Source: a virus (taxonomy: Duplodnaviria > Caudoviricetes). From it: a DNA stretch of 50,267 nucleotides. Of this stretch, positions 4,275 to 22,300 are shown piece after piece. The first letter of the stretch is position 1. Every line of letters starts with the position of its first letter. The stretch covers positions 1-50,267 of the IMG/VR virus record IMGVR_UViG_3300025103_000026. One strand, given 5' to 3'. Below the pieces are notes generated by a model. The model worked only from the letters and a program-made list of their open reading frames with translations. It was not told where the DNA came from and searched no databases. A program made the position numbers and the translations under genes.

Positions 4275-4295
4275 ATTAACTGTCCTTTATTTTAT

Positions 4296-5198: not shown

Positions 5199-5238
5199 GA
5201 TTGCCTTTCTATAGGTTTACAGCAGACTAAAATTATCC

Positions 5239-7497: not shown

Positions 7498-9062
7498 TAT
7501 GCAATCACCCAATTTTTAGGCATTTGTACGACCTTTCTATGAATACCTTTATGTGTTTCAAGTCCTGTCGGGGGTATAGAATACTTAACTGAATAAGCTA
7601 ATGCATCTATTGTATCATCATGTGCCATCCGTGGACCAAAAGTTATAATCTCATGTTGTAAGTCGTAATGTGTTTTTTTAATTTTTACTGCACCAATAGC
7701 CATCCTTTGTGCAAGGATTTCTTGGATACGGTCTCTTTTTGACATTCTTGTGCCGGGTTTTTCCTGCTTAACTTTTACGGTAAAATCGTTTCTACGCCTC
7801 ATCTCTGATATAATAGATTGGAATACTGGTCTTGACATTGTTGTATCCTCTATGACACTTAAACGGGGCTTAAATACAGAGTTCTGTTCAAATATATAAT
7901 CTACTATTCCTTTTTTATCCTCACCCGGTATAGCAAGAACAGGTAAACTTCTTTTACGAATATAATCTAAAACATAAATATTAGAATCCTCATCTATTGC
8001 TATAACAATTATAACACTAAAATCACTTTCCCTTCTTTCTGAATCTGTTGCCGGGTCTACTCCCATATATGTATTAACTGGTCTTTCCTGTCCATCAACC
8101 ACAATATAGTTCATTCCAGTATCTTCATCATGTTTAAAAGTTCCATCCCAATAGTTTATATGCCTCATATTAAAAATAGAATCTTCCTCAGACTGAACTT
8201 CCATCATATATTCTTGATAAAATTTATTTGCCTGTCCAGAATCAGCATAAAACTTCTTCTTTTCTTCAAGCTTAGATAATGGAAACCAACTATGCCATAA
8301 AGGTTGTCCATTCGGCTGAATTGCTTTATACATTAAAACTTCCCAGCTAAAATCTTCTTTATTTTTTTTAGCTCTTTCCGAATTAACAATAAGATTATTT
8401 ATAAAAGAATCAAAGTGTACAGGAGTACCGTTAATACGAAGCCTACCACCGTCAGGTTCTAATGCCGGATGTACAACTGCAGTTACCATATTTGCATTCT
8501 TAGAGCGACTATCAGCAGTTAGCGTATTATTTTCATCCTCAAAATCATCAAGAATAATAAGGTCATATCTTTTGTGAAGTTTAGCTCCACCACGAATACC
8601 AGATATATTTGATTTAGAAATAAGCTTGCAACCGTTAGAAAATTCAATATCCTGCTCTGTCCATTTTTTACCTTTTAAATCTCCAAAGTAGTATCTTATC
8701 ATATCATTCAGTTCAATATGAGTTTTAATATAATCCATATTGCCAGTCGCAAGCTTTTGAGTCGCAGATACCCAGCCATAAAATAGAGGTTCTCGTGCAA
8801 AACAAAAACTCCTCAGAATATCTGCCTTAGTCAATACTGTTTTTCCATGTCCTCTTGGTAGAATAATAGCAAGATTATTATATTTATAATTCTTGCCATC
8901 TCTTTCAGTCATCTTATCTGCCATCTTATAATGAAACCAAGGAGTATCTGAACGGTTAAAATCGTCTGGTAAAAACAACTTCCCGAAAGCAATTAAGTCA
9001 CGAGAAGCTAAAAGTAAAGCCTCTTCAGCTTTAGCTACATTTTGTGTATTATAGTTACTCAC
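7497..9062 (-). CDS. terL: Terminase large subunit
   Basis: Walker A PRGHGKT, Walker B LIILDDFE, coupling motif GTP, nuclease motifs GVDPA and HDDTIDA. Confidence 0.95.
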   Translation of the reverse strand: MSNYNTQNVAKAEEALLLASRDLIAFGKLFLPDDFNRSDTPWFHYKMADKMTERDGKNYKYNNLAIILPRGHGKTVLTKADILRSFCFAREPLFYGWVSATQKLATGNMDYIKTHIELNDMIRYYFGDLKGKKWTEQDIEFSNGCKLISKSNISGIRGGAKLHKRYDLIILDDFEDENNTLTADSRSKNANMVTAVVHPALEPDGGRLRINGTPVHFDSFINNLIVNSERAKKNKEDFSWEVLMYKAIQPNGQPLWHSWFPLSKLEEKKKFYADSGQANKFYQEYMMEVQSEEDSIFNMRHINYWDGTFKHDEDTGMNYIVVDGQERPVNTYMGVDPATDSERRESDFSVIIVIAIDEDSNIYVLDYIRKRSLPVLAIPGEDKKGIVDYIFEQNSVFKPRLSVIEDTTMSRPVFQSIISEMRRRNDFTVKVKQEKPGTRMSKRDRIQEILAQRMAIGAVKIKKTHYDLQHEIITFGPRMAHDDTIDALAYSVKYSIPPTGLETHKGIHRKVVQMPKNWVIA

Positions 9063-11352
9063 CTGCCTTATAGCCAGAGTGTGTATGAGTATGTGCTACA
9101 TCGCCAGCACTAGCCTCTCCTGATACCGTTACACAGCCACCATGTTCATATACAGGAGTAAATCCAGCTCTATTATCTTGAAGTTTACCACCCATCTCTA
9201 AAGCTTCACCTTCAAGCATACCACCATCTTTATACATTTTTTTAGTATAACCACCTGCCATAAACTGTGGAACTTTACCTGTTTCATTAAGATAGTTAAG
9301 TACATCATCACCAAGCTTTTTAGCAGAGGATTTTTTAATAACATATTCTCCACCTTCCATCTCAATAGGTTGGTTTCCTACATTAGCAGCTATACCACCT
9401 TTTTTATGAGAAGGTCCTGAAAGCATACCACCTTCTTGATATTTAAGACCATATTTCTTTCGCATCTTTTCTTGATATGCTGCTTTGGATTTAGCTATAT
9501 CTGCTTTTCTTTCTTCTCTTTCGCTTTTAAGTTTTACAGATTTCTTAGCCTGTTTTGCTTCATATGCTTGCTTTTGAAATACTTCTTTAGATTTATATTT
9601 TTTACCTGTTGCCGGGTCGAAATAACCTTTTTTCCTAAATATACCTTTAACTTTTTCAACACCTTTTTTAACTTTACCGACACCTTTTTTAACTGCTTTT
9701 CCTAATGGAAAATCAACAACTGCATCTTTTCCATGCTTTTCTTTAAACTTCTTTTCTCTATATTTAGCCTCTATATCAACTTCTGGTTCTTTTTTCTTTT
9801 TCTCTTTTATACCATATTGTTCAAAAGCATATTTTTTAGTCTTAGCATCTAATCTATCCGGATGCTTTTTCATCATCATTTTAAGTTGTCTTCGTTCATT
9901 GTCAGATTTTGGTCTTTTTTCCTTAACTGTTTTAACTTCTACTTTCTTAATTCCCTTTTCTTCCTGTCTTTTCTTATCTGCTTCTGTACCAAGTTCCACT
10001 CTTTTTCTAAACTTTGTTTCTGTTCTTTCAATCTTAGGAGGAGCTACGAACTTTTTAGTTCCCGGCTTATCAACTTGTTTACCTTGAGTCTTTCGTAGAG
10101 ATTTTAAAGTCTTTGGTCCAAGAGTTCCAAATCCGGCATCACCTTCTTTCATTCCCATTGCAGATACTTGATACTTCTTTACAGATTCCGGGTCATCACC
10201 TTTAATTGTTTTTGCAAGGTCTCTTGAGCTCTTAGGAGGTTCAGGTTCTACTTTAGGTTCTACTTTAGTTTTAACTTCTTTTTTAGGTTCTACTTTAGTT
10301 TTAACTTCTTTTTTAGGTTCTACAACTTTATTAGTTGATGTGCTTGAAATAACATTTCCGTCAGCATCATATTTTTTTTGACCAGAATAAACGGGTTTAT
10401 TATCTAAACTTTCTCTTCTTTCACGGTCTTCTTTAGCTGCTTGAGTCTTCCCTACAATATTTCTTATATCAAATAAAGGTTTACCTTTAGCACCGACTTT
10501 AGGGACTGTATCTTCTGTAATGCCTTTAGCCATCTTCTCTGCCATATCTAAAGACTCATCTTCTCTCTTCTTTAGATTTGATAATTGTCCACCAGGAGCA
10601 TATTTTATCTTACTTTTATATCTGGTTTTTTTAACAGGACCAGTTTTGTCATATCCACCTTTGGCAATTTTTTGCTCATATCTTGTTCTATGTGGACTCT
10701 GTGATTGAAGTTTTCTTAATTCATCTACATTAATCCCTAAATTAGCTGCAGTTTGAACTTCTTTGCCTGTCGGTTCTTTATAATGAGAACCACTTTTTTT
10801 AAAAGCCTTATCCCAATACTCTTTTTTAGCCTTACCACCATCTTTAAATATAGGTGTTCCTTCATCGTAAGATTTCTTAAGATGCTTTGCAATTTTTATA
10901 GTAGGTCCTATCGTAGGGATACTTCCTATTGCTTTTAAAATTTTCTGACCTTCAGTAAGAGGTGCTGGTTTACTATGTTTCTTTTTTAACTGTTTAACTC
11001 GGTCTTCAACAGGTTGGTCATGTATAGCTTTTTCCTTAAAAACAGTTGGTTTTGGTTTAACCTTAGGGGCTTTGCCCATCACTCTTCCAGCATCAGCTGC
11101 TAATTCTACATCAGATGGCTTACCACCTTTTTTCATCTTTCTTTTACTGCCTTTCATACGAGATTTTTCCTTTCTGCCACGATTAGTGGACTCTGGTTCT
11201 AATTTAACACCACCGTTTACATGAGAGACATCTAAGTTATCTCCATTACCATAAGTTCCCTTCTCATGGTTTATACGGTTTAATTCTGTTCTTTTTTTAA
11301 TTGAAGAAGGAGAGGATTGGAACTTTGAATATTCATCTTTGTAATCTCTCAC
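9055..11352 (-). CDS. Lys-rich protein with N-terminal HNH-like domain, [YF]xxGG repeats and GPSHxxGG domain
   Basis: N-terminal RDYKDEY...GDNLDVSH...NRGR, very high Lys content, C-terminal GPSHKKGGI..EMEGGEYVI. GTG start overlaps the upstream TGA. Confidence 0.6.
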   Translation of the reverse strand: MRDYKDEYSKFQSSPSSIKKRTELNRINHEKGTYGNGDNLDVSHVNGGVKLEPESTNRGRKEKSRMKGSKRKMKKGGKPSDVELAADAGRVMGKAPKVKPKPTVFKEKAIHDQPVEDRVKQLKKKHSKPAPLTEGQKILKAIGSIPTIGPTIKIAKHLKKSYDEGTPIFKDGGKAKKEYWDKAFKKSGSHYKEPTGKEVQTAANLGINVDELRKLQSQSPHRTRYEQKIAKGGYDKTGPVKKTRYKSKIKYAPGGQLSNLKKREDESLDMAEKMAKGITEDTVPKVGAKGKPLFDIRNIVGKTQAAKEDRERRESLDNKPVYSGQKKYDADGNVISSTSTNKVVEPKKEVKTKVEPKKEVKTKVEPKVEPEPPKSSRDLAKTIKGDDPESVKKYQVSAMGMKEGDAGFGTLGPKTLKSLRKTQGKQVDKPGTKKFVAPPKIERTETKFRKRVELGTEADKKRQEEKGIKKVEVKTVKEKRPKSDNERRQLKMMMKKHPDRLDAKTKKYAFEQYGIKEKKKKEPEVDIEAKYREKKFKEKHGKDAVVDFPLGKAVKKGVGKVKKGVEKVKGIFRKKGYFDPATGKKYKSKEVFQKQAYEAKQAKKSVKLKSEREERKADIAKSKAAYQEKMRKKYGLKYQEGGMLSGPSHKKGGIAANVGNQPIEMEGGEYVIKKSSAKKLGDDVLNYLNETGKVPQFMAGGYTKKMYKDGGMLEGEALEMGGKLQDNRAGFTPVYEHGGCVTVSGEASAGDVAHTHTHSGYKAGE
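10254..10323. repeat. In-frame 30-bp tandem repeat encoding VEPKKEVKTK
   Basis: ttaggttctactttagttttaacttctttt occurs twice plus a partial copy. Confidence 0.8.
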
Positions 11353-11624
11353 GCTTCTGCCTTATAAATTCTTAATTTGCTTTTTGGGCTTTCCTCAAGT
11401 AATATATCTTTAGCTTTATCTGTATGTATCCATATAGGTGTTTGTTCGCCGACATATGAACCTTCTACATTAAAATAAAAGTATTCAACTGCATCGTCTT
11501 GACTCATACCTTGTTTCTCAAGTATTGTAATACACTTATCTACATCATAGATTGCAATGTTCTTAGAAGAAATACCCAGCAATGCATCATTAAATCCATC
11601 TGCTAGTAGTATATCATCATACAT
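11349..11624 (-). CDS. Conserved phage hypothetical protein
   Basis: 91 aa with LADGFNDALLG and AVEYFYFNVEGSYVGEQTP, a pattern I recognise from aquatic phages. Translationally coupled to its neighbours. Confidence 0.7.
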   Translation of the reverse strand: MYDDILLADGFNDALLGISSKNIAIYDVDKCITILEKQGMSQDDAVEYFYFNVEGSYVGEQTPIWIHTDKAKDILLEESPKSKLRIYKAEA

Positions 11625-12306
11625 TTTCTACTAACTCCGGTCTTTGGGCTGCTTCAAGCTGTTCATTGCTAATACCTTGAAAAATCCCCGTAACATTAGT
11701 TACCCTCTGTTTTTCTATAACACCAAATGCATCCCACAGCATATTTAAACTTCTTATCCGGTCTGAATCATTCTTAGCATTATCTGTTATCTCTTTAGCA
11801 GTATTAATTAAATATTTTAAATCTACCCCTAAAGTATCAAATGTATTCTGTAACTTCTCGTTCACTAAAGTATCCACCCTTTCTGTTGTTAATAAAATAG
11901 CAGACTGTTTCTTTGCATATGCTTTGCTCTTTGCCGGGAAAACATCAAGGTAGGCTTCTACTCGGTCTTGACCTTTTGAAACCCGTAAAGCAAACAACTC
12001 TTCTCTCTTTGTACAGGTCTTCCGAGTATGTATTGTTGTGTCTGCTCTCTTACCACTAAGATTATAAATATTAGCCTTCCTTACAGTATCAATTGCCTTG
12101 CAGTATGTTCCTGTACATGTCCCAACAGTCTTATGTCTACCAAGTTTACCCCGTCTGAGTACTTGAATAATACAATCGTCATCTGCAACCACCCAGTCCC
12201 CGACTCGTGCATCCTGCCAATCCTTACGGGGAGATATGTGGTCCGGGAGGTCATCCCCCGGCTCATAGATTGAGTGCACTTTGCCTTTTATAGTATATTG
12301 TCGCAT
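11617..12306 (-). CDS. terS: Terminase small subunit (putative)
   Basis: Helical segment REELFALRV..EAYLDVF..YAKKQSAILL typical of TerS. First gene of the late operon. Confidence 0.65.
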   Translation of the reverse strand: MRQYTIKGKVHSIYEPGDDLPDHISPRKDWQDARVGDWVVADDDCIIQVLRRGKLGRHKTVGTCTGTYCKAIDTVRKANIYNLSGKRADTTIHTRKTCTKREELFALRVSKGQDRVEAYLDVFPAKSKAYAKKQSAILLTTERVDTLVNEKLQNTFDTLGVDLKYLINTAKEITDNAKNDSDRIRSLNMLWDAFGVIEKQRVTNVTGIFQGISNEQLEAAQRPELVENV

Positions 12307-12963
12307 AGGGTAATATAACTATATGTTGCAATACTAAACTGTAAAAATTGTGGGATTTTAATGCTTGGCTAAAATAGAAACATACACCCCCATGCAAAGG
12401 GTTTCCGTACATATAATTCCGTTATTTTCCGTTTTTTTCCACAGGTTATGATTGATGCTGATATCTACAACCTACCACCAATGCTATCTGCTAGGGGTCT
12501 GCTATGCCTTAATCCTACACCTATATAATGCACCACTAAATATTCGTATGCTATCAACCTATTATAATACTTAATCTGATTAGCCACAACCAACACACCA
12601 CCAACCTATCCACCTACCTATCCACCTACCTATCTAAGCCTGTAATAAATAGTCTTGGTGTATATAGGTATTGGTAAAGAATGTGGTACTGTCGGGGGTC
12701 GGGAATCTGTCGGGATGGTAACCAAAGTTACTTTATTAGTAACAATAGTTACTTTATTTAATGCTATGATATTACGCTTACCCTCTGACAATCATAATGG
12801 CACAGGATTTGAACCAATAGATTTAGTTGGTAGTGAGGGCGTTTATTGTGAGTCGAGTCTAACAGGATGAAACAGGATAGTTATTATAGTTGTTGTTATG
12901 ACTACGGGATACAATTTTAAGATGACTCACTACTATTTTAGTAATTAATTAAGGAGTTTAAAT
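12307..12963. promoter_or_regulatory. Divergent non-coding control region (candidate pac/terminus and promoters)
   Basis: About 650 bp between divergent operons, with ACCTATCCACCT tandem repeats and a C-rich to G-rich switch near 12650. Confidence 0.5.
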
Positions 12964-13167
12964 ATGAGATTTATTCTAAACCAAGAACACCCCAATACAC
13001 CATTCAAAGTATCCTGTACCAATTGCAGTGATAACTATCTGATTGAGTATACTTATTCAGATTTAGATGGTGAACCATTTATTTATTGGTGTAGGGAGTG
13101 CTTGGTAATCTGTCGGGGGGAAGAGGTATTGCCTGTTAATTTTATATCACTACTTAAAAATAATTAA
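12964..13167 (+). CDS. Small Cys-containing early protein
   Basis: AAGGAG RBS, CxxC...CxxC. Confidence 0.6.
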   Translation: MRFILNQEHPNTPFKVSCTNCSDNYLIEYTYSDLDGEPFIYWCRECLVICRGEEVLPVNFISLLKNN

Positions 13168-13239
13168 ATGAGTACTTGCTTTGCATTCGCCAAGTGTACG
13201 AAGTTATCCCATCAATCAAATGAACGATTGAATGATTTT

Positions 13240-13572
13240 TGAAATAGGTGGTAACAGAGGGTCAGCCCATACAATAGATTTGAGGTTGACAACTGATTAG
13301 TTAACCATCGCCGAGAATAGACCATTGGAAACACCCATCATCGTAACACCAATGAAACAATCTGTATCAGTCACATAAAGGACTTAGTCAGTATCTATTA
13401 ACAGGTTGGAGTATCAAGTTATCAATGTTGGAAGTTGTAGAGGGTAGCAGTTATCGTAATGATGACAAGGAATGTGCGAGGGGTAGTCAATGAATGGTTA
13501 AGGTAGAAGTAGCGAATCTGCTAGAATATTAAATATTATGGACATTAGAATCTGTATGTTCAGTTATCAGTA
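13240..13572 (+). ncRNA. Candidate large structured non-coding RNA
   Basis: No ORF of 60 aa or more. Multiple nested and crossing helices, an AGUA/GAA-containing loop, a boxA-like TGATTTTTGAAAT upstream and a tRNA-like element downstream. Confidence 0.45.
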
Positions 13573-13660
13573 TGGAATGTATATGGAAGATAGATGTAGC
13601 TAAGGCTTAGTGATTAATTCACAGATAATCTGTCGGGGGTCGATACCTCGCATTCCACTA
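13573..13660 (+). ncRNA. Degenerate tRNA-like element
   Basis: TGGAATG/CATTCCA acceptor-like stem and T-arm CGGGG-GTCGATA-CCTCG, ending in CTA. No canonical D or anticodon arm. Confidence 0.5.
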
Positions 13661-13693
13661 ATTTTTTTAATCAATAAAACAGGAGAATAAATA

Positions 13694-13936
13694 ATGAACA
13701 GAGATTGTCAATTTATAATCGACTTACAGAGCGAGAATAATAAAAAAAGAAATTATAACTTAGGGTGGTACAATTTAATTGTATCTATTCGAGATTTGAG
13801 CCTGTACAATAAGGGTATTAAACCTCATAGAAATTGGAAAATTACACCCTTAAAGAATTACTTTAACATAAAAGGTAATTCAGAAAAAATGTTAGAACAA
13901 TTAAGAATAAAAAAAGATATCCTAACTAACGGCTAA
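13694..13936 (+). CDS. Hypothetical early protein
   Basis: 80 aa, AGGAG RBS. Confidence 0.75.
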   Translation: MNRDCQFIIDLQSENNKKRNYNLGWYNLIVSIRDLSLYNKGIKPHRNWKITPLKNYFNIKGNSEKMLEQLRIKKDILTNG

Positions 13937-13981
13937 ATGTAGATGGTCTTTTGGGGGGTTCAATTCCCCCCTACATTTCTA
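13935..13981 (+). ncRNA. tRNA-like minihelix (acceptor stem plus T arm), copy 1
   Basis: AAATGTAG..GGGGG-TTCAATT-CCCCC-CTACATT-T-CTA followed by a T tract. Confidence 0.6.
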
Positions 13982-14018
13982 ATTTTTTTTAACCAACAAA
14001 ACAGGAGAATAAATAGTT

Positions 14019-14234
14019 ATGAATCCAAAATTAACTGATTATGAGATAACAATTAGCGACAAAAAGAGTGGTCGAGTTTATGATGTTATCGATTTAGAAT
14101 CATATAAAACTGATAAAATCGAAGAGTGGAAAAAATACTTTCCAAATGATATTTTTGATGATGAAAGTTTAAAAAGTGAAATAGTTGAATTAATGGAAAG
14201 CTATCTAACTGATATTATAAAGGAGAATAAATAG
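14019..14234 (+). CDS. Hypothetical early protein
   Basis: 71 aa, flanked on both sides by GGAGAATAAATAGTTATG junction motifs. Confidence 0.75.
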   Translation: MNPKLTDYEITISDKKSGRVYDVIDLESYKTDKIEEWKKYFPNDIFDDESLKSEIVELMESYLTDIIKENK

Positions 14235-14236
14235 TT

Positions 14237-14377
14237 ATGAATACAGAAAAATTTTGCGTCGTTAAAATAGGTGATGATAAGTATTTCAATAGAATATTTA
14301 ATTTCACGGGGAATATGAGTGAATGTATATCATTTGCATCAACCAAAAGATTTGGTGGTGGTGTAGAAGTTATATAA
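14237..14377 (+). CDS. Hypothetical 46-aa protein (not in ORF track)
   Basis: MNTEKFCVVKIGDDK...GGGVEVI, starting at the junction-motif ATG. Confidence 0.65.
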   Translation: MNTEKFCVVKIGDDKYFNRIFNFTGNMSECISFASTKRFGGGVEVI

Positions 14378-14378
14378 T

Positions 14379-14425
14379 AAATGTAGATGGTCTTTTGGGG
14401 GGTTCGATTCCCCCCTACATTTCTA
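14379..14425 (+). ncRNA. tRNA-like minihelix, copy 2
   Basis: Identical to copy 1 except the T loop reads TTCGATT. Followed by a T tract. Confidence 0.6.
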
Positions 14426-14455
14426 GTTTTTTTTAAAACACACACGGGAGTAATT

Positions 14456-14623
14456 ATGTATGTATGCAAAGATGGTTGGCGAGGTAGAGTTGATGAGCCA
14501 TATAAGAACGGCTTAAAAGACAATTCTAAGACTCAAGAACAATTAGAGAGAGAGATTATTAGAGAGACTAATAAGACCTCTAGATATCACAATATTTCTA
14601 AACAAAAACTAGCGAGGTCGTAA
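14456..14623 (+). CDS. Hypothetical early protein
   Basis: GGGAG RBS before ATG 14456. Confidence 0.55.
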   Translation: MYVCKDGWRGRVDEPYKNGLKDNSKTQEQLEREIIRETNKTSRYHNISKQKLARS

Positions 14624-14691
14624 ATGATAGGATTTGTATTATTTCCAATTATTATAATGTCAATTATTGAACTTGCAGAAAGGCTATAATT

Positions 14692-15090
14692 ATGTATAAA
14701 GACAATTATAATATATTTTCTATACATTCAGATTCAATTATGGATGTACTGAAAGCCTACCCAAATACTTGCGATAGTGTTGATAGCAGTTTATTACAAT
14801 TAATTAAATCTAATGTTAATTCTGTACACCCTTACAAAAGATTAACTCTAGATAGTTTTATTTATATTAAACTAGTAAAGGTTGATGATTATGGTTCTGA
14901 CTCAGGATTTAAGAGTGAGTACATTATATCAATGGATGATGGACTACCTAAGATGTATGCTGAGAAGGTATTTGATAGGCTTTTAGAATTAGGTATTAAA
15001 TTCAAGTTAAATGGATTAACCAAAGGGCAAATAGTTTCAAATACAATGAAAAGAATAAATAATAGATATAAAATTGAGGAGAATAAATAG
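14692..15090 (+). CDS. Hypothetical early protein
   Basis: 132 aa, ends EENK* in the junction motif. Confidence 0.7.
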   Translation: MYKDNYNIFSIHSDSIMDVLKAYPNTCDSVDSSLLQLIKSNVNSVHPYKRLTLDSFIYIKLVKVDDYGSDSGFKSEYIISMDDGLPKMYAEKVFDRLLELGIKFKLNGLTKGQIVSNTMKRINNRYKIEENK

Positions 15091-15092
15091 TT

Positions 15093-15332
15093 ATGAGAAT
15101 TACACTTAAAAAAATAAACAGATTATTAGAAAAATATGGATTAGAAATAGTTAAATGGAATGACTCGTATAGTGAATATTATTACTACTCTTCAATTAAT
15201 GATGATGGTGATAAGATTATGATGAATGCATCTGATGGGACAATCCATTGTCACCAATTAAATGAAATGAATATAGTAAAACATATCGAAACCTTTTCAA
15301 CTTTTATTGAATCAACTATGGAGAATAAATAG
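15093..15332 (+). CDS. Hypothetical early protein
   Basis: Junction-motif RBS, ends MENK*. Confidence 0.75.
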   Translation: MRITLKKINRLLEKYGLEIVKWNDSYSEYYYYSSINDDGDKIMMNASDGTIHCHQLNEMNIVKHIETFSTFIESTMENK

Positions 15333-15334
15333 TT

Positions 15335-15520
15335 ATGGATTATAAAACAAAAGTCAATGAATTATGGGATTACTTAGAAAATACAGAAACAGCTACAAAA
15401 GAAGAAATATGCTTAGTGACCTCAATTAATGGAACGAATTTAGAATCCTTAGAGAGTATTTTATATTCTCGCACAGGATGGAGAAGTTTAGAACAAATAT
15501 TACAAATGGAGGATAAATAA
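15335..15520 (+). CDS. Hypothetical early protein
   Basis: Junction-motif RBS, ATKEEICLVTSING..YSRTGWRSLEQ. Confidence 0.75.
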   Translation: MDYKTKVNELWDYLENTETATKEEICLVTSINGTNLESLESILYSRTGWRSLEQILQMEDK

Positions 15521-15741
15521 TGTATAGAAAAAATATATCAAGTTTACTTAGAAATAAAAGAAATGCTTATCACAGAAACATTACCGTAGATAGCATGAAT
15601 GAAATATCAGATGGATATTATGAGATGTTTATTGACAATCTTAATATTGAATACCTTAATGAAGACAAAGCAAGAGCAGTATTAAGAATTATCCACCTAT
15701 TTGAAACAGATTTATTAAATGAAATTAAGGAGGAAGAATAG
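15520..15741 (+). CDS. Hypothetical early protein
   Basis: GGAGG RBS, TAATG coupling. Confidence 0.7.
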   Translation: MYRKNISSLLRNKRNAYHRNITVDSMNEISDGYYEMFIDNLNIEYLNEDKARAVLRIIHLFETDLLNEIKEEE

Positions 15742-15743
15742 TT

Positions 15744-16106
15744 ATGAATAAATTAAAATTAAAAATAGATGGTGTAGGATATGAATATATTGTTCTGAAC
15801 GGGGTTAGTCGGGGGTATAAATGTGTTAGTAATGATGTGATAGAATTTTTTCACCTGAGAAAGCAAAAGAAAAATAGATTTATTGCTGGCTATAGACCTT
15901 GGCAACCTGAGTCGCTCGACATAGTAAATGGTAGTAAATTGGAATTGAAATGCTCAGAGGTTAAAAACGGTAGACCATCCTATGCCCTGTATGACCTTAG
16001 TTATGATGGTACAGAGGGTATGGTATCAGTTAAAGTAGAATTTGTATCTTATGATGGTACAGATTATATGGGTAGAGATTATACATTATTTAGCGAGGAA
16101 AAATAG
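15744..16106 (+). CDS. Hypothetical early protein
   Basis: Junction-motif RBS, internal SYDGT duplication. Confidence 0.7.
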   Translation: MNKLKLKIDGVGYEYIVLNGVSRGYKCVSNDVIEFFHLRKQKKNRFIAGYRPWQPESLDIVNGSKLELKCSEVKNGRPSYALYDLSYDGTEGMVSVKVEFVSYDGTDYMGRDYTLFSEEK

Positions 16107-16108
16107 TT

Positions 16109-16294
16109 ATGACTAAAGGACAATTAATGCAGTTGAATTATACTGCTGATGAATTAAAACAGATAGACCCAAGTCTACCTATGGATGTATCAGAAGACCT
16201 TAGAAGTAAGGGTGAAGATACATATTTTTATGTAATGAATTATAATAATAATTGTCTTGGACAATTAGAAAAAATGGAGAATAAATGTTATTAG
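16109..16294 (+). CDS. Hypothetical early protein
   Basis: Junction-motif RBS. Confidence 0.7.
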   Translation: MTKGQLMQLNYTADELKQIDPSLPMDVSEDLRSKGEDTYFYVMNYNNNCLGQLEKMENKCY

Positions 16295-16473
16295 AAGAAA
16301 AAAATATTAAAGGTATAACGGTACGAATGTATCATAATTGCATTGAGATTAGTAGTATTGTTAATAATCAATACTACCACCGAAAGTATATAGGATATAC
16401 AGAAGAACAAGCAATTAGTTTATTTAAAACAGGTTTATCTTTTTTAGGAGTAAGTACTTTTATAAAATTATAA
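16285..16473 (+). CDS. Hypothetical early protein
   Basis: GGAG RBS, overlaps the upstream gene. Confidence 0.7.
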   Translation: MLLEEKNIKGITVRMYHNCIEISSIVNNQYYHRKYIGYTEEQAISLFKTGLSFLGVSTFIKL

Positions 16474-16488
16474 AATTAAGGAGAATAA

Positions 16489-16740
16489 ATGAAAATAATA
16501 ATATTTAAGGATGCTCAAGGTGATATGAATTGGAGATTTCAATCACAGATGATTCCTTCAAGCACTATACTTGGAGTAATTCAAGTAAAGTTTAAAGATA
16601 TTGAATTGATTGATTTTAATTCTATTAAGATAAATTATGTTAATGAGTTCTATGCGACTAAAAGAGGACTCATTATTTTAATGGAAAATTCAAATAATTT
16701 TGTATTCCATTATGAAAAAGAAAAACAGGAGATTAAATGA
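16489..16740 (+). CDS. Hypothetical early protein
   Basis: AAGGAG RBS. Confidence 0.65.
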   Translation: MKIIIFKDAQGDMNWRFQSQMIPSSTILGVIQVKFKDIELIDFNSIKINYVNEFYATKRGLIILMENSNNFVFHYEKEKQEIK

Positions 16741-17033
16741 AACATTGTAAAAAATGTGGGAATCGATTTAGAACATTAGTTGATGGTATTTTTAGTGGTA
16801 CAGAGATTTGTATTAATCACGACTTTAAATATGGTAGCTATGCAGATGGGGATGGTTGGAGAATTACAGAATATCCAAGTTTAGATACTGAATGTGTATG
16901 GTACTATGAGGTAGCTGAATGGAAAGACGGAAATATTGTTGAAGATGAACTTGGAAATGATGATGGAGAGCATTTTGATAATTTAGAGCATGCTCTTGAA
17001 TATCTTGAAGAACAATTAGAGGAGAGTAAATGA
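16737..17033 (+). CDS. Hypothetical acidic early protein with N-terminal CxxC
   Basis: ATGA coupling, AGGAG RBS. Confidence 0.7.
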   Translation: MKHCKKCGNRFRTLVDGIFSGTEICINHDFKYGSYADGDGWRITEYPSLDTECVWYYEVAEWKDGNIVEDELGNDDGEHFDNLEHALEYLEEQLEESK

Positions 17034-17314
17034 GAATATTAGTTAATAAAAAAGGTGACAAGTTATATTTTAGAGGATGGGAGGGTGCTTTTGCATCCAC
17101 CATTATGTTTATGGCTGAATCATATCAACACGACATTAAAAGAGTAGAGAATAATTTGTCGGCTTATCAACTGAATAAGTTAAACAAAGGTAAGTTAATA
17201 TACTTACAGAGAAGACACCCTAAGTACAAGTTATATGAATCTTTATTGAATCAATTAAAGTGGCTTAAAGGTATAGATGTTTGGACTAAAAACGGATATG
17301 AAGGAGATTATTAA
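17030..17314 (+). CDS. Hypothetical early protein
   Basis: ATGA coupling, GGAG RBS. Confidence 0.7.
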   Translation: MRILVNKKGDKLYFRGWEGAFASTIMFMAESYQHDIKRVENNLSAYQLNKLNKGKLIYLQRRHPKYKLYESLLNQLKWLKGIDVWTKNGYEGDY

Positions 17315-17315
17315 G

Positions 17316-17576
17316 ATGAAGATATTATTTGAGAGAATAGAGTGGTCATTAGGGATGACCTTAATGTCTTTAGTTTCAGCAGTATGTATGTTTATGATAG
17401 TGATGCTTTCATACAATATAGTTGATGACTATGGTAGAGAGAATAGATTGCTCAGAGCAATTGCATCTGACCAAGCACTAATATTAGAAGGCAAGAGAAT
17501 TAATTTCACATCACCACACGAGTTAGAATTAAACCGACAAAAATACAATAAACTATTAGGAGATATGTATGAGTGA
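17316..17576 (+). CDS. Hypothetical membrane protein
   Basis: AAGGAG RBS before ATG 17316, one hydrophobic segment (LGMTLMSLVSAVCMFMIVML). Confidence 0.65.
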   Translation: MKILFERIEWSLGMTLMSLVSAVCMFMIVMLSYNIVDDYGRENRLLRAIASDQALILEGKRINFTSPHELELNRQKYNKLLGDMYE

Positions 17577-18015
17577 AGATACAACATTACGATATTGGTA
17601 TGAAGTAGCAGTTACTTGGGATGAAGATAATGGTACAGATACCATTGCACAATTTGACAGTCTTGAACAGGCTGTAAAGTTTATGAATGATGATAAAGAA
17701 ATTGAATCAGAATTACAACCCGATATGTTTGAGTATGTCGAAAATGTATTTATAGATAAATGGCTTGGTGATACCATTATGCCAAATTATAAAGATAGAA
17801 AGTTTAATGCAATTATCAGAACAATTAACAAGCCAAAAACTAAAGCAGTAATAACTTGGTATGCAGAGGACATTAAAAGTCAATGCGATACACTAACTGA
17901 TAAACAAATAGGGGATGTACTTTCTTTAATTGAAAATAACCACGATGCTACCATTGGGGTCAATTGGGAAGTTATTAATTATTACATAGAAAAAGTTACT
18001 AAGGAGGGTAAATGA
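17569..18015 (+). CDS. Hypothetical early protein
   Basis: 148 aa, AGGAG RBS, C-terminal NHDATIGVNWEVI. Confidence 0.75.
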   Translation: MSEDTTLRYWYEVAVTWDEDNGTDTIAQFDSLEQAVKFMNDDKEIESELQPDMFEYVENVFIDKWLGDTIMPNYKDRKFNAIIRTINKPKTKAVITWYAEDIKSQCDTLTDKQIGDVLSLIENNHDATIGVNWEVINYYIEKVTKEGK

Positions 18016-18129
18016 ACGAAGCAATTAGAAGATTAACAGAGATGCTTAAATGGAGCGATAGACTAGGCAATGATGAAAGGCTTGAAATAGAATTTGCAAT
18101 TAATATTTTAAAAATGATAAGGAGAGTAA

Positions 18130-18354
18130 ATGATGAAAGTTAAAAGTATAAGATACTTTGAAACAAATAGAGGTTTAGGCTATGAAGCCAAGACAGACAA
18201 GGGCAGTATTTGGAATGATGGTAGTGGTGGGGATACATATTTTGAACCCGATTATCCTAAATATAAAAGAAGTCAATTCAACCATCTTTCTGAAGATGAT
18301 TTAGAAAAACTAATAGATGTTTACGAAATAAAAATAGGGGCATTAGTACAATGA
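18130..18354 (+). CDS. Hypothetical early protein
   Basis: AGGAG RBS, YFETNRGLGY..IWNDGSGG. Confidence 0.75.
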   Translation: MMKVKSIRYFETNRGLGYEAKTDKGSIWNDGSGGDTYFEPDYPKYKRSQFNHLSEDDLEKLIDVYEIKIGALVQ

Positions 18355-18671
18355 AGAAAGTTAAAGTAGCAAAAACAATAGAGAGATTTATTAGAAAGCA
18401 TGGCTTAGATACAGATGTTAGGATTTATTTCTCTAATAAGGCTTGGGATTATGATTCATTCGGTAAGAAAACAATACTTACTGACATCAAGGCATCTGAT
18501 TATTTTGCCTATGCAAATGATGATACAATTAGTATGAGTTTTGAGGGAGCATTAAACTCTGCTTTGAATATGTATAATGGGTATGAGTTGTTTGATAAGT
18601 TTAGTGATTTAGATTTTGATGGGTATCATTTCGAGATGGGTGAGTCTTGGAATGGTGCATTTTTTAAATAA
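18351..18671 (+). CDS. Hypothetical early protein
   Basis: 106 aa, ATGA coupling. Confidence 0.75.
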   Translation: MKKVKVAKTIERFIRKHGLDTDVRIYFSNKAWDYDSFGKKTILTDIKASDYFAYANDDTISMSFEGALNSALNMYNGYELFDKFSDLDFDGYHFEMGESWNGAFFK

Positions 18672-18687
18672 AAAAAAGGAGAATAAT

Positions 18688-18900
18688 ATGTGGACTTGTA
18701 TAGAATGTGATAAGAAGTTTAATGGTTTGACAGGGGATACAGATGAGAGGGTATGTTATGAATGTATCGAAGAAGAATATGAAGTTAATGTATCGGGTTG
18801 TTTTACTATTCTTGCTAAAAGCCAAGAAAGTGCAAACAGATGGGTAGAAGATAATATAAAAGAATATATTGGAGAATTAGAAATAGGAGAGGAGGATTAA
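18688..18900 (+). CDS. Hypothetical zinc-finger protein
   Basis: AAGGAG RBS before ATG 18688, CIEC...CYEC. Confidence 0.65.
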   Translation: MWTCIECDKKFNGLTGDTDERVCYECIEEEYEVNVSGCFTILAKSQESANRWVEDNIKEYIGELEIGEED

Positions 18901-19125
18901 ATGAAAAATATAGATTATGATTCAAAAAGTTATAAAATAATGTGTATTATGGATATAATGTTGGACATTAATCCTAATTACAGAAATGATTTTGATGATT
19001 CAGAAGATATGTATATTAATTTATCAAATTTAATTACAAAATTTGAAGAACAAGATAATGGTGATGGTGCTTGGTATGATTCCCTTGTTGATTTTTTACA
19101 AAAAGAATATAAGGAGATTAAATGA
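18901..19125 (+). CDS. Hypothetical acidic protein
   Basis: GGAGG RBS. Confidence 0.7.
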   Translation: MKNIDYDSKSYKIMCIMDIMLDINPNYRNDFDDSEDMYINLSNLITKFEEQDNGDGAWYDSLVDFLQKEYKEIK

Positions 19126-19559
19126 AAACAGAAAATGAAATAAGAGAATACCTTGCTGATTGTAAGGAAGCAGTTAAGGAACTTGATAAAATGCAAGATA
19201 GTCTACAAGCCTGTAAATATGAAGGTATTGTTGAGGGTTTAGAGTTTGCATTGTCAGACACATCACTTGTGACTAAGGAAGAACAATCCAAGTTAAATAG
19301 CATTGCTGACTTTATTCTACATCAGAACTACCCTAAATCAGCCAATGGTATCTTTGCTTATTCAACAGCATACGATATAGACTATGATGTTAATGGTTGG
19401 GGCAGAGATGATAAAGGTATTGAGATTATCGTTTTTGAGGTTGTGTATGGACAAAAAGATGATTGTCATAATACTACACATTCAGTAGATATGAAAGTAA
19501 GAAGAGATGTACTTAATCAATGGGGTGGTAATGGACTACCACAATTAGAGGAGGATTAG
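19122..19559 (+). CDS. Hypothetical protein
   Basis: 145 aa, ATGA coupling. Confidence 0.7.
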   Translation: MKTENEIREYLADCKEAVKELDKMQDSLQACKYEGIVEGLEFALSDTSLVTKEEQSKLNSIADFILHQNYPKSANGIFAYSTAYDIDYDVNGWGRDDKGIEIIVFEVVYGQKDDCHNTTHSVDMKVRRDVLNQWGGNGLPQLEED

Positions 19560-19850
19560 ATGAGCAGATTTTTAAGCGACCATATAGATGACTATTGCAG
19601 AGAGAAATATGGTCATAGTAATTGGGGGTATCTTAATGGATATAGTAAGGAGGATTTGTCGAGGGCTAAACATACTATTGAGGGCAGTATAGTCTTTTGG
19701 AAAAATGGAATGTGCGAAGAATGTGATGATGACAATCCTAATTGGAATGATGAGAATGATGAGAATTATTATCTATGTGATAAATGTAAATCAGTTATAG
19801 ACAGAGATGATGATAGTGAAGCAAAAACAATAGGAGTAGAGAATGAATAA
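19560..19850 (+). CDS. Hypothetical zinc-finger protein
   Basis: GGAGG RBS, CEEC...CDKC. Confidence 0.7.
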   Translation: MSRFLSDHIDDYCREKYGHSNWGYLNGYSKEDLSRAKHTIEGSIVFWKNGMCEECDDDNPNWNDENDENYYLCDKCKSVIDRDDDSEAKTIGVENE

Positions 19851-20091
19851 AGAAGATATATATTTAAATTTATCCCTTGTAATTCACTTGGCAGAAATGC
19901 TTGGCTTGGAAGAACTTGAGGGTGTTCCACTACACAAACAAATCATTGAAGAAGTTAATAAACTTAACCTTATAGAAAGATGGGTTGAGTTTGAAATGGC
20001 TTATGTCTGTGAAGATAATAGTGTAATGAAAACGGCTTTAAAAGAATCTAAAGAAGAATTTATTTCTAAATTTACAGGAAAAAAAAGCTAA
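19843..20091 (+). CDS. Hypothetical protein
   Basis: AGGAG RBS. Confidence 0.65.
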   Translation: MNKEDIYLNLSLVIHLAEMLGLEELEGVPLHKQIIEEVNKLNLIERWVEFEMAYVCEDNSVMKTALKESKEEFISKFTGKKS

Positions 20092-20097
20092 AACAGG

Positions 20098-20131
20098 TTG
20101 CTTGTAAAGTGGAAAGCAATGTATATTATAT
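20098..20131 (+). promoter_or_regulatory. Sigma70-like promoter overlapped by an inverted repeat
   Basis: TTGCTT-N18-TATATT. TTGCTT-N10-AAGCAA is an inverted repeat (possible operator). Confidence 0.5.
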
Positions 20132-20164
20132 AACCCAAAAACAACAAAAAAAAAGGGAAGACAA

Positions 20165-20341
20165 ATGAGTAAAATGAAAGATATGTTAATCGAATCTTAT
20201 GAAGAGCCAACACCTTGTGAGTCTGATTATATGACAGATGAAGAAATGAAAAAGGCTATGCAACAAACACAAGATGACCACCTTCAAGCAATAAATGATA
20301 GGGTTGTTCAAGAAGGTATTGACAGGAGAAAAGGAAAATGA
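20165..20341 (+). CDS. Hypothetical 58-aa protein (not in ORF track)
   Basis: MSKMKDMLIE...RRKGK, coupled to the next gene by ATGA. Confidence 0.6.
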   Translation: MSKMKDMLIESYEEPTPCESDYMTDEEMKKAMQQTQDDHLQAINDRVVQEGIDRRKGK

Positions 20342-20700
20342 TATTAAAATTCAAACAGAAACTATGTCATAATGGTTATCCAATGGTAGACCTTCAAGGT
20401 GAGGGTTATTCAAATTGGGATTGTTATGATGGTCTGATAGAGTATCAAATAGAACTTGATGTTAAAGAGTATGGAATTAAAGACATCATACCATCTATAA
20501 TTTCATTTAGGGTTCATATTGAAGAAATGGATGGGAAGGGTACTAAAACAATCGACTTAAAAGATGTTGAGTATAAAGACTTTGGACAATCTCAAGCTGA
20601 ATCTTGGACACAAAGAGGAGATGCAATATGCAATGGCTTACACATTAGCCATGTAGTGCTAGACTTAGATAGTAGGATTGTAGATGTATGTATGAAGTAA
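20338..20700 (+). CDS. Hypothetical protein
   Basis: 120 aa, IEYQIELDVKEYGIKDI. Confidence 0.7.
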   Translation: MILKFKQKLCHNGYPMVDLQGEGYSNWDCYDGLIEYQIELDVKEYGIKDIIPSIISFRVHIEEMDGKGTKTIDLKDVEYKDFGQSQAESWTQRGDAICNGLHISHVVLDLDSRIVDVCMK

Positions 20701-20951
20701 TTAAATTATCAAATCTAAGTGAAGCAGATATTGGAGAGAATCTTGGTGTAACAAGGCAGTTTGTTCATCAATGGAGTTCGGGTAAAAGACCAATACCAGC
20801 CAAATATAAAGATAAACTATATAAGATACTTTTGAATAGCTTATTAGCTTCAATAGAAAAGCAAAGAGAAGGTATAAAAATGTTAGAAAAAAGTGTTGCA
20901 ATTCAAGTAAGTAAACCACAACACTTAGGAAAACCAAACACAATAAAATAA
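20688..20951 (+). CDS. XRE/Cro-family HTH transcriptional regulator
   Basis: LSEADIGENLGVTRQFVHQWSSGKRPIP. Confidence 0.8.
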   Translation: MYEVIKLSNLSEADIGENLGVTRQFVHQWSSGKRPIPAKYKDKLYKILLNSLLASIEKQREGIKMLEKSVAIQVSKPQHLGKPNTIK

Positions 20952-20955
20952 AGGA

Positions 20956-21633
20956 GTGTTAATGAAAAAAGCAAGTGAAATACTTGAAATGTTAAAAAAA
21001 GATACCGAGAAGCATGAGATTAAATTCCGAGAGGGTAACACCTTTGGAAATAGGGCGAATATGTTAGCCTATATTGATGCAAGGTATGTAATGGATAGAT
21101 TAGACGAAGCAACAGATGGATATTGGAAGAGTGAGTACAAAGAGATTAAGGGTAACTTGTTCTGTGGTATATCTGTTTTGCTTGACGGGGAGTGGGTAAC
21201 TAAATGGGATGTCGGAGTTCCAAGTAACTTTGAAGCTCAGAAAGGTGAAGCATCAGATTCGTTTAAAAGAGCTGGTGTAATGTGGGGTATAGCGAGAGAT
21301 TTATATCATCTTGGTAGATTTACTGCACCACTTGGAGATAATGGCAAAGCACCCTATAATTGGAAGCCAGAAGGATGGGATAAGACAAAGATTGTACCCG
21401 ACTCTTTAGAATTAGCACCACATAACAGACCAACTAAAGAAATAATGGTTTCAGTTGAGGAGTCTTATGCTGAAGCTAAGAAGCTAGGTTTACTAACTAA
21501 AGAATGGGATGAGAAAATGCTGGAGAATATTAATAAATATAAAATCAAACAGCTTGATAAAAAGACAGCACTTTCTATGTTAGAAAATATGCAGAAACTT
21601 TTAAATAACCATAAAATACAAGGAGACTCATAA
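20956..21633 (+). CDS. Rad52/Rad22-family single-strand annealing protein (Sak-like)
   Basis: YIDARYVMDRLDE, WVTKWDVG and KGEASDSFKRAGVMWGIARDLY. Confidence 0.9.
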   Translation: MLMKKASEILEMLKKDTEKHEIKFREGNTFGNRANMLAYIDARYVMDRLDEATDGYWKSEYKEIKGNLFCGISVLLDGEWVTKWDVGVPSNFEAQKGEASDSFKRAGVMWGIARDLYHLGRFTAPLGDNGKAPYNWKPEGWDKTKIVPDSLELAPHNRPTKEIMVSVEESYAEAKKLGLLTKEWDEKMLENINKYKIKQLDKKTALSMLENMQKLLNNHKIQGDS

Positions 21634-22121
21634 TGAGTGAATACAAACCGAATCTAAAAATAGAAGTTGGAGAACCTAAGTTGGTTAAATTTCTATTCAA
21701 TGATGCTATACCTGTGACAACGAAGTTTGGACAAAGGTATAGATATACTTTAAGTACTGCTGGGGTTGAGCATCAAATGTTAGCAACTAGCACCTTGCAC
21801 GGCTTAATATCTCAACACTCACCACTTAGGGATAAGGAGCTTACCATAGGTAAAGTAAAGGTTGATGATAAGATAACTACTTTTACAATTAATGGTATGA
21901 CTATGGATGACTTGAAGAAGAAGGAGGGGAAGGATTTTACCTCTGTCTTGGATGGTAGTAAGTCTGTCGGGAGCTATGATGATGGTGTTGTTTTAAAAGG
22001 TAGTTTAGATGACCTATGGAGAGAGATTAACAAACTCAACAAAGCTTTAAAGGTTGTAATGGAAAGAGCAGAGGCTTTGGAGGGTTCTAAGACTACTGAA
22101 GCTGATGAAGATTTGTTCTAA
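21633..22121 (+). CDS. Putative single-stranded DNA-binding protein
   Basis: Follows Sak. Beta-rich N-terminus and acidic tail DEDLF, with a DEDLPF variant in the duplicated sequence. Confidence 0.65.
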   Translation: MSEYKPNLKIEVGEPKLVKFLFNDAIPVTTKFGQRYRYTLSTAGVEHQMLATSTLHGLISQHSPLRDKELTIGKVKVDDKITTFTINGMTMDDLKKKEGKDFTSVLDGSKSVGSYDDGVVLKGSLDDLWREINKLNKALKVVMERAEALEGSKTTEADEDLF

Positions 22122-22145
22122 GACTACTGAAGCTGATGAAGATTT
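22084..22145. repeat. 31-bp perfect tandem duplication at the SSB 3' end
   Basis: gttctaagactactgaagctgatgaagattt occurs twice. Confidence 0.95.
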
Positions 22146-22151
22146 ACCCTT

Positions 22152-22300
22152 CTAGGTTTAACCTAGGTTTAATACCTATACTTAATAGATTACAACCTAT
22201 GTTTACCTACACATCTAGGTTTAACCTATATTATGCCCTGTGGATAATGTTGATAACTCGCATTATCCGAGGGTATGATAGTGTTAATGATTGTGGATAA
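22152..22300. promoter_or_regulatory. Candidate replication origin: AGGTTTAACCT palindromes plus DnaA boxes
   Basis: TGTGGATAA at 22239 and 22292, TGTTGATAA at 22248. AGGTTTAACCT at 22154 and 22217 plus degenerate copies. Confidence 0.6.

Follow-up and report, generated by a model that had tools for sequence, protein, structure and literature searches.

A duplicated hairpin and U-tract unit shaped like the top half of a tRNA between putative early genes of a Caudoviricetes genome

We analysed the DNA of IMG/VR virus record IMGVR_UViG_3300025103_000026 (Duplodnaviria; Caudoviricetes), which represents an uncultured marine phage; the window, as we call the stretch below, is the whole of this record, 50,267 bp with an estimated completeness of 90%. 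Head and packaging genes occupy 7-12306 on the minus strand and are followed by a control region that is largely non-coding (12306-13690), an extended run of small open reading frames (ORFs) on the plus strand from about 12964 to 28441, and large minus-strand ORFs at 28438-50255. The plus-strand run includes Rad52-like, PD-(D/E)XK, RusA and HNH proteins, and from the gene layout we infer that it is expressed early. Between the first ORFs of this run lies the element studied here, a 59-nt unit present twice. Repeat search and pairwise alignment placed its copies at 13934-13992 and 14378-14436 on the plus strand and showed them to be 97% identical with 2 mismatches. A first-pass annotation had reported two near-identical copies of 47 nt (13935-13981 and 14379-14425), and within those shorter limits the copies did differ in the loop only. 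The units and the ORFs around them are as follows.

13694..13936, plus strand: 80-amino-acid (aa) ORF with the TAA of copy 1 as its stop; IMG/VR loci supplied 17 relatives, and neither Pfam nor PHROG has a family for it
13934..13992, plus strand: copy 1, made up of a TAA stop, acceptor-like stem, linker, T-arm-like hairpin, CTA and T8
13936-13942, plus strand: acceptor-like 5' strand of copy 1, AATGTAG
13943-13953, plus strand: linker of copy 1, 11 nt
13954-13970, plus strand: T-arm-like hairpin of copy 1, with GGGGG at 13954-13958, loop TTCAATT at 13959-13965 and CCCCC at 13966-13970
13971-13977, plus strand: acceptor-like 3' strand of copy 1, CTACATT
13978 onwards, plus strand: tail of copy 1, with T at 13978, CTA at 13979-13981, A, T8 at 13983-13990 and AA
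13984..14015, plus strand: U-rich leader and ribosome-binding site after copy 1, 94% identical to 13662-13693, which follows a weak third element (element 0, described below)
14019-14234, plus strand: 71-aa ORF between the copies, no relatives found
14237-14377, plus strand: 46-aa ORF between the copies, no relatives found
14378..14436, plus strand: copy 2, with the anatomy of copy 1 shifted by 444 nt, loop TTCGATT at 14403-14409, CTAG in place of CTAA, and T8 at 14427-14434
14456..14623, plus strand: 55-aa ORF after copy 2, with its ATG at 14456 in frame with a listed ORF at 14387-14623

The anatomy was read directly from the letters and agreed with the first description: an acceptor-like stem of 7 bp, a linker of about 11 nt, a 5-bp T stem with a TTCRATT loop, one base and CTA. 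All 7 outer-stem pairs are Watson-Crick, and the 3' strand runs unbroken from the inner to the outer stem, resembling the acceptor/T-arm stack of a tRNA. The T-arm motif GGTTCRANYCC is present (as GGTTCAATTCC and GGTTCGATTCC) inside the GGGGG/CCCCC stems, with a 5-bp stem and a 7-nt loop. Both mismatches between the copies are A/G. The one at 13962/14406 affects the fourth base of the loop, which stays a purine within the T-loop consensus, and the one at 13982/14426 turns TAA into TAG in a frame where the unit still has a stop. The hairpin can gain a sixth G-C pair (13953-13971) at the expense of G7-C66 in the acceptor-like stem, and RNAfold favoured this 6-bp register.

The units occupy both sizeable gaps among the tightly packed first ORFs, each beginning at a stop codon and ending some 25 nt short of the next start, and in both copies the unit ends match the stop codon and the start of the leader. 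The claim that each copy starts at a stop codon held fully for copy 1, where the unit TAA (13934-13936) is the stop of the 80-aa ORF; at copy 2 it held in part, the ORF at 14237-14377 having its own TAA and the unit TAA being the second in-frame stop. The unit contains stops in all three frames, which is unremarkable for A/T-rich DNA. Scanning the plus strand of the early region for G/C hairpins followed by T runs returned sites at 13662, 13983 and 14427 and the next only at 18660. The three clustered sites, the first of which is in element 0, all fall in the first 1.5 kb or so of the plus-strand gene run.

Comparison with known RNAs placed the units outside the established families. ARAGORN called 0 tRNA or transfer-messenger RNA (tmRNA) genes in the window, no Rfam family reached its gathering threshold in the window, and the Rfam tRNA model RF00005 had no match at E <= 10 in the whole record, the same model matching 14/14 control genomes. 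A search of 2.3 kb at permissive thresholds gave mascRNA-menRNA (RF01684) as the best Rfam look-alike of both copies, at 22.7 and 22.2 bits against a gathering threshold of 42.5 (E 0.15 and 0.2), and its alignment to either copy is end to end, spanning the T arm as well as the 7-bp stem. The T arm also matched tmRNA models locally, with 16.3 bits for copy 1 (RF00023, E 6e-4 in the 2.3-kb search) and 13.2 and 12.8 bits for copy 2. The units are not members of the tRNA, mascRNA or tmRNA families; their likeness to the top half of a tRNA is confirmed.

Each of the tRNA-like RNAs that resemble the units also differs from them. The mascRNA and menRNA are excised from a longer transcript by RNase P and RNase Z. 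The mascRNA is a vertebrate nuclear RNA that retains a reduced anticodon-like arm, and here the units, which also score below gathering, differ. The tRNA-like domain of tmRNA combines an acceptor stem with a T arm and has no anticodon arm, as in the units; however, tmRNA has a G3-U70 alanine identity pair and an mRNA-like domain, whereas the units have U3-A70 and no mRNA-like domain, and CCA is not encoded. Bacterial Y RNAs are likewise tRNA mimics. Plant mitochondrial t-elements (Forner et al. 2007; PMC1920247) are tRNA-like sequences with no decoding function that lie beside coding regions; they are proposed there as cis-signals at which RNase P and RNase Z create mRNA ends, and GGTTCRANYCC is the motif used for finding them. 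This T-arm motif is common to the t-elements and the units. The t-elements are organellar, with mapped RNA ends and in some cases a non-encoded C, whereas the units belong to a phage; the units also differ in having 11 nt in place of the D and anticodon arms and a U8 tract downstream. The literature searched, with a limited library and set of terms, covered t-elements, mascRNA-like RNAs, Y RNAs and tRNA gene fragments and held nothing on anticodon-less tRNA minihelices between phage genes.

To gauge chance expectation we counted the element and its shape in the window and in shuffled versions of it. The 19-nt core occurs 2 times in the window against 0.01 expected. A loose minihelix, defined as a 5-bp stem with a TTCRANY loop abutting a 7-bp stem, with a linker of 3-25 nt and G-U pairs allowed, arose in 15/400 dinucleotide shuffles of the window, and an all-Watson-Crick minihelix in 1/1500 shuffles. 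In other phage loci, 954,814 bases in all, the loose definition had 2 matches; both are rich in A/U and G-U and, judged by eye, apparently within coding sequence. The minihelix shape is unexpected in random sequence, with the reservations that the two copies amount to one evolutionary event, that the element was picked from a very large scan and that the fair null is some structured intergenic hairpin, not random sequence. Folding gave a robust G/C hairpin (-12.1 kcal/mol with 6 bp of G-C; pair probabilities 0.79-0.92 within 245 nt) and modest Z-scores for the isolated elements (-1.2 to -1.9).

Relatives of the element itself were not detected in the collections searched, which may lack the records nearest to the window. 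Exact and degenerate patterns of the 3' half gave 0 matches in the viral, metagenome and genome contig collections, and a 22-nt 3'-half pattern was absent from the genomes of 185,579 species. With the T-stem bases unconstrained, the pattern matched 10 loci in the viral and 67 in the genome collection, a number (77) close to the chance estimate; ARAGORN called a tRNA-Leu at 2/77 of them, where the 5' acceptor strand did not match, a few others resemble 3' fragments of tRNAs, and most are unrelated sequence. The first-pass annotation had proposed a covariance-model search, which we ran on related records with a model built from the two copies, and it returned no homologue with the T loop or the 7+5 geometry. 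Among 50 of 80 related records there was one match (G018, E 0.021), which has no G/C stem or T loop and is coding by eye. In the window and 17 loci of the 80-aa gene family only the window copies matched, next to 4 weak hits at E 1.9-5.2, and 3 loci with the common ribosome-binding-site motif gave 0 matches. The observation as such is confirmed: the unit is a two-copy element of a single genome, with the position of an early terminator and the form of a tRNA top half.

The relatives of the phage carry two kinds of feature at the head of this operon, the first being true tRNA genes. ARAGORN called a tRNA-Met in 3/34 loci scanned, and RF00005 in 21 records gave 3 matches above and 3 below threshold. 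A tRNA-Met(CAU) lies near the start of the small-gene run in L082 (6049-6124, minus strand), L078 (2133-2208, minus strand), L066 (7090-7163, minus strand), G007 (G007:C1:41911-41983, minus strand) and L075 (about 5810-5890, minus strand), and L104 has a tRNA-Tyr upstream of its 80-aa homologue. CCA is unencoded in the tRNA-Met-type genes examined (n=5) except that of L075, and CTA follows the discriminator base in 2/5 tRNA genes (L082 and G007), as it does in the units. The ribosome-binding site of a small gene comes directly after the tRNA-Met, within about 15 nt, in L082 and L078. These true tRNA genes (tRNA-Met of L066, L078, L082 and G007, tRNA-Tyr of L104) lie on the same strand as the units and do not encode CCA; unlike the units they have a full cloverleaf, another acceptor and T-arm sequence and no U8 downstream. 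An intergenic tRNA-Met-like sequence in G002 (L083, G002:C1:15200-15700, about 215-290) scored below threshold (18.8 bits) and looks degenerate. We also observed that this sequence retains a CTCATAA anticodon loop and has a non-canonical T loop and a T8 upstream, and that positions 1 and 72 of the L082 tRNA-Met are unpaired by eye.

The second kind of feature is a terminator. L047 and L059, relatives that share this gene layout, have a canonical one behind the first early gene: GGGGGAGATG-TAA-TGTCTCCCTC and then T8 in L047, and GGGGAGC-TTCG-GCTCCCC and then T5 in L059. Counting loci with at least 1500 nt upstream of the gene for a 229-aa protein, which is divergent from the plus-strand run, 10/36 have a G/C hairpin and T run on the early strand within 3.5 kb of that gene, and 8 of these are intergenic by an ORF test. 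A canonical terminator lies within 110 nt after the 80-aa homologue in 6/17 loci (L091-L093, which are identical, L094, L097 and L100). None of the 63 hairpin and T-run sites in 823,189 bases of relatives (0 of 63) has a 7-nt TTCRANY loop; one of them (L039, plus strand, 7972) has an 8-nt loop, TTCAAGTT. The first-pass annotation had named homologues that keep the stem and U tract and lose the T loop as what would speak against a tRNA mimic, and the plain terminators of the relatives come close to that description, being positional analogues and not sequence homologues.

Because the units lie between cistrons on the transcribed strand, at clustered sites, and because relatives have terminators at matching places, we tentatively read them as a duplicated intercistronic hairpin/U-tract cassette, probably tRNA-derived, that makes or protects 3' ends, a reading to which we give slightly less than even weight. 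On the early plus-strand transcript each unit would present its stops and a G6/C6 hairpin that a weak, A/U-rich outer stem of 7-8 bp could close; the U-rich tail (UUUCUAR, then U8) would come next, and behind it the next gene's leader with its ribosome-binding site. A fraction of transcripts would end within the U-rich tract, making the unit a leaky, non-canonical intrinsic terminator or attenuator, and the hairpin may protect the message 5' of it against 3' exonucleases, so that nested immediate-early transcripts result. The outer stem includes the upstream stop codon in its base, and a ribosome at that stop would hold the stem open, so read-through could depend on translation. The top-half shape would go back to a tRNA gene, of the kind that relatives have at the operon head, that lost its D and anticodon arms and was then duplicated. 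Such ancestry is plausible and, judged from sequence, probable, because relatives have true CCA-less tRNA genes at the same operon head.

The alternative of a terminator or attenuator had been raised from the start, and it stood as to position, which fits it better than a function with tRNA enzymes, and fell short as to canonical quality. Terminators and attenuators of the lambda tR1/tL1 type are also G/C hairpins with a U-rich tract after the first early cistrons on the transcribed strand; the units are unlike them in having U8 4-9 nt from the stem, a 7-nt T-loop-like loop and a 10-11-nt bulge in the stem. Our terminator scan listed both copies under its looser rule. If the three lowest A-U pairs open, the tail UUUCUAAU / UUUCUAAUUUUUUUU comes directly after the stem UGUAG/CUACA (UUUCUAAU has 5 U in 8), and UUUCUAAUUUUUUUU would be an acceptable U tract behind a bulged hairpin.

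Several results weigh against the 3'-end cassette. The distance to the start of T8 is 9 nt from the G/C hairpin and 4 nt from the composite stem, and a strict terminator rule found 6/17 in the loci of relatives and 0/2 in the units. A provisional d'Aubenton-Carafa-type score gave -18 to -55 for the units and +64, +42, +34, +29, +0.8 and -38 for six terminator-like hairpins of relatives. The relatives' terminators mostly have 3-4-nt loops with the T run abutting the stem, compared to the 7-nt loop of the units. The outer stem is marginal, adding 2-3 kcal/mol and pairing with a probability of 0.00 (copy 1) or about 0.1 (copy 2) in a 245-nt context. Finally, no donor tRNA with this acceptor and T-arm 3' half was found in the scanned collections. 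The weak predicted outer stem weakens a minihelix reading without ending it because the energy model gives no credit to tertiary contacts. From the terminator quality we would expect termination to be no more than partial. As leaky terminators and nothing else, the units would represent ordinary control of an early operon, and their tRNA shape would be a curiosity of origin.

The first-pass annotation proposed tRNA mimicry, as processing signals or as decoys for tRNA-binding or defence proteins; the shape was upheld on paper by the 7+5 stack, the GGTTCRANYCC motif and the mascRNA look-alike, and neither cleavage by RNase P and RNase Z nor a decoy function gained direct support. As t-element-like processing signals the units would be cut by RNase P at the 5' end and by RNase Z, or by RNase E in the AU-rich trailer, at the 3' end, splitting the early transcript and releasing a small RNA of about 43 nt, possibly CCA-tailed. 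We consider this unlikely. Minihelices of acceptor stem and T arm are substrates for bacterial RNase P, RNase Z and the CCA-adding enzyme, and the exactness of the stack, the continuous 3' strand and the motif all suit such enzymes, as do the preserved loop purine at the sole difference inside the minihelix and the end-to-end alignment with mascRNA, itself an RNase P/Z product. The CCA-less tRNAs of relatives are co-transcribed at the same place, so that the host must process such substrates beside early messages, and with cleavage 3' of the discriminator base the following gene would keep a U-rich leader that includes a ribosome-binding site. However, the mascRNA score is half of gathering (22.7 vs 42.5), the tRNA model found nothing at E <= 10, and the acceptor-like stem has 5/7 A-U pairs and is barely predicted in context (0.00-0.10). 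An RNase P cut at +1 of copy 1 (13935/13936) would remove the last A of the 80-aa ORF stop, leaving a message without a stop. Moreover, no conserved homologue and no covariation were found, and the positional analogues in relatives have neither T loop nor 7+5 geometry. The most far-reaching version, in which the phage turned a tRNA gene into punctuating minihelices, with RNase P/Z cuts, stable messages and CCA-tailed RNAs of about 43 nt that occupy tRNA-end-binding enzymes, we hold to be distinctly doubtful. Non-decoding tRNA-like punctuation is known in organelles and in vertebrate long non-coding RNAs, and this version, if true, would give mitochondrial tRNA punctuation and plant t-elements a counterpart in a bacterial virus. 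Should tRNA enzymes cut the units, a phage messenger would be punctuated in tRNA style by non-decoding elements, and the units would show one fate of the operon-head tRNA genes of relatives. That a released minihelix acts as a decoy for tRNA-binding or defence proteins that target the acceptor end or T arm is scarcely credible: its shape and early-operon expression are all that speak for it, it has no anticodon arm and so could not decoy anticodon nucleases, it shows no G3-U70 or other nameable identity element, no conservation was found, and its release from the transcript is hypothetical.

The remaining explanations assign the units no role, a general ribonuclease or a role in DNA. A functionless relic, in which a decayed, internally deleted tRNA gene and its trailer were copied once by recombination and persist harmlessly, is improbable. 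The unit was seen only in this genome among the collections searched, the near identity of the copies points to a recent duplication with no sign of selection, the surrounding early genes have few or no relatives, and the degenerate sequence of G002 is an apparent case of tRNA decay at this locus in the family; against a relic, the unit ends coincide with the stop codon and the leader start in both copies, and terminators that look functional stand at the corresponding places in relatives, which makes a neutral position improbable. A general endonuclease site, either for RNase E in the single-stranded AU-rich tail or for RNase III in the two-tier stem, is quite improbable. RNase E prefers a context such as a hairpin followed by an AU-rich single strand, which the hairpin and CUAAUUUUUUUUAA resemble, and the two-tier stem with its asymmetric internal loop recalls the intercistronic RNase III sites (R sites) of the T7 early operon. 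RNase III needs roughly 20 bp of helix (about two helical turns), however, and the units offer at most 13-14 bp in two tiers, a difference on which a T7-type RNase III site was rejected. As a DNA-level element, the unit would be a cassette boundary for recombination and gene shuffling or a protein-binding palindrome. The promoter-stem-loop repeats of T4-type phages are a parallel, and here the 59-nt direct repeats flank a 385-bp cassette of two orphan ORFs and the modules form a mosaic, the hairpin being common to copies 1 and 2 and the trailer to element 0 and copy 1. We nevertheless think this highly improbable, as the T-loop orientation, the downstream U tract and the match to the direction of transcription point to a role in RNA, and there are two copies only.

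Element 0, the weak third element, lies just upstream of the first ribosome-binding site of the plus-strand gene run and has the following parts.

13573..13668, plus strand: element 0, a 7-bp closing stem stacked on a hairpin, then C, TAA and T7
13573-13579 and 13651-13657, plus strand: closing stem of element 0, TGGAATG and CATTCCA, perfect complements
13634-13650, plus strand: hairpin of element 0, CGGGG-GTCGATA-CCTCG, with CATTCCA directly 3'
13662-13668, plus strand: T7 of element 0

Element 0 shares its trailer with copy 1, which in turn shares its hairpin with copy 2. It has the size of a tRNA, and its distance from the divergent 229-aa gene is 1.27-1.35 kb; L066, L078 and L082 have their true tRNA-Met(CAU) at 1.2-1.43 kb from the homologous 229-aa gene, on the same strand as element 0. 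Its enclosed 85 nt gave a Y-shaped fold with a minimum free energy of -24.6 kcal/mol and a z of -2.4, for boundaries set post hoc. Identity as a tRNA was rejected as the Rfam tRNA covariance model found no match. Local alignment of element 0 with copy 1, the T run excluded, returned only AATGTA(T/G)ATGG, and 126/2000 shuffles scored equally well. We treat element 0 as suggestive only because no tRNA model matches it and its hairpin overlaps the recurring motif AATCTGTCGGGGG. A 17-mer from element 0 had one match, in coding sequence of an unrelated high-GC phage. The 13634-13668 module recurs, with 3 differences, in a 204-nt DNA contig of X19, another marine sample, where it lies between unrelated flanks and has a ribosome-binding site and ATG downstream, suggesting that the hairpin and T-run module may occur in other phages.

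The motif AATCTGTCGGGGG occurs on the plus strand of the control region, exactly at 13107-13119 and 13627-13639 and with 2 mismatches at 12704, within 12688-12716; in total it has 6 matches in the window against 0.29 expected. It could be a regulator-binding site, a candidate that overlaps the element 0 hairpin. By eye, CTGTCGGGGGTCG is at both 12688 and 13630. At 12718-12758 of this divergent control region, two tandem GTAAC-N-GTTAC sequences, each followed by TTTATT and spaced by 21 nt, form operator-like inverted repeats. A strand-biased, low-complexity repeat region that is C/A-rich in the window adjoins the 229-aa gene at 12580-12640, and C-rich repeats of the CCCCTCCCC type, in 7 copies, match it in L015 (8856-9138) and L016 (6037-6319); this region beside the 229-aa gene could be related to an origin or to packaging. 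A 67-aa ORF at 12964-13167 has two CxxC-like pairs by eye. Between it and the 80-aa ORF, 13168-13690 is a stretch of about 520 nt without an ORF, of which 13168-13670 (503 nt untranslated) is not unusually structured (z 0.05) and has no Rfam match.

Relatives of the early ORFs around the units are few or absent. The 80-aa ORF had no match by tblastn against GenBank phages, and neither viral nor metagenome contigs yielded a relative of the 71-aa ORF. A search with the 19-nt ribosome-binding-site motif returned 3 loci, all unrelated. The ribosome-binding context AGGAGAATAAATAGTTATG recurs before several early ORFs (14003-14021, 14221-14239, 15077-15095 and others; 5 copies, 75-100%), and the stop of the preceding ORF falls within it, an arrangement that suggests translational coupling.

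Searches of the region by megablast, blastn and tblastn found no close GenBank phage. Identity of the terminase to the terminases of 80 IMG/VR loci, selected from 596 confirmed relatives, is 65-76%. The region is partly present in 24 marine metagenome DNA runs, and none of the 24 runs listed is an RNA run carrying it. Contigs from four DNA runs were short and identical to the window wherever they overlapped it, as far as they covered the phage region; one of them (X13) spans copy 2 with 0 differences, and the stretch 13884-14015, which holds copy 1, lies outside contig coverage. No integrase family appeared in Pfam scans of 30 ORFs, and on this ground, with the absence of the 22-nt 3'-half pattern from the 185,579 species' genomes, and as the unit also holds the 5' acceptor strand, an attachment site derived from a tRNA fragment was rejected. 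In L084 (G014:C1:14700-15200, about 190-260) we observed the 5' part of a tRNA-Leu-like gene adjoining an ORF, the start of which resembles what we take to be a phage integrase N-terminus. Some relatives may be temperate and integrate at a tRNA gene.

The head and packaging genes identified on the minus strand are given below.

2739-4274, minus strand: major head protein
5239-7512, minus strand: portal
7497-9062, minus strand: large terminase

A 765-aa ORF (9055-11352, minus strand) lies between the terminase and the 229-aa gene, two genes that are adjacent in relatives; it belongs to no Pfam family, and in the examined loci it has relatives only for its first 65 or so residues. The ORFs of 2889 aa (28438-37107, minus strand) and 1369 aa (43136-47245, minus strand) also belong to no Pfam family, and for the 2889-aa ORF no PDB relative emerged and the PHROG matches were all weak and of unknown function. 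A virion RNA polymerase acting on hairpin promoters (N4-type) was dropped as a candidate on these properties of the 2889-aa ORF. The large minus-strand ORFs at 28438-50255 include a GH108 lysin, a weak tail-fibre match, and a protein with a Laminin_G_3 (concanavalin-like) domain that has a weak match to a tail-terminator PHROG.

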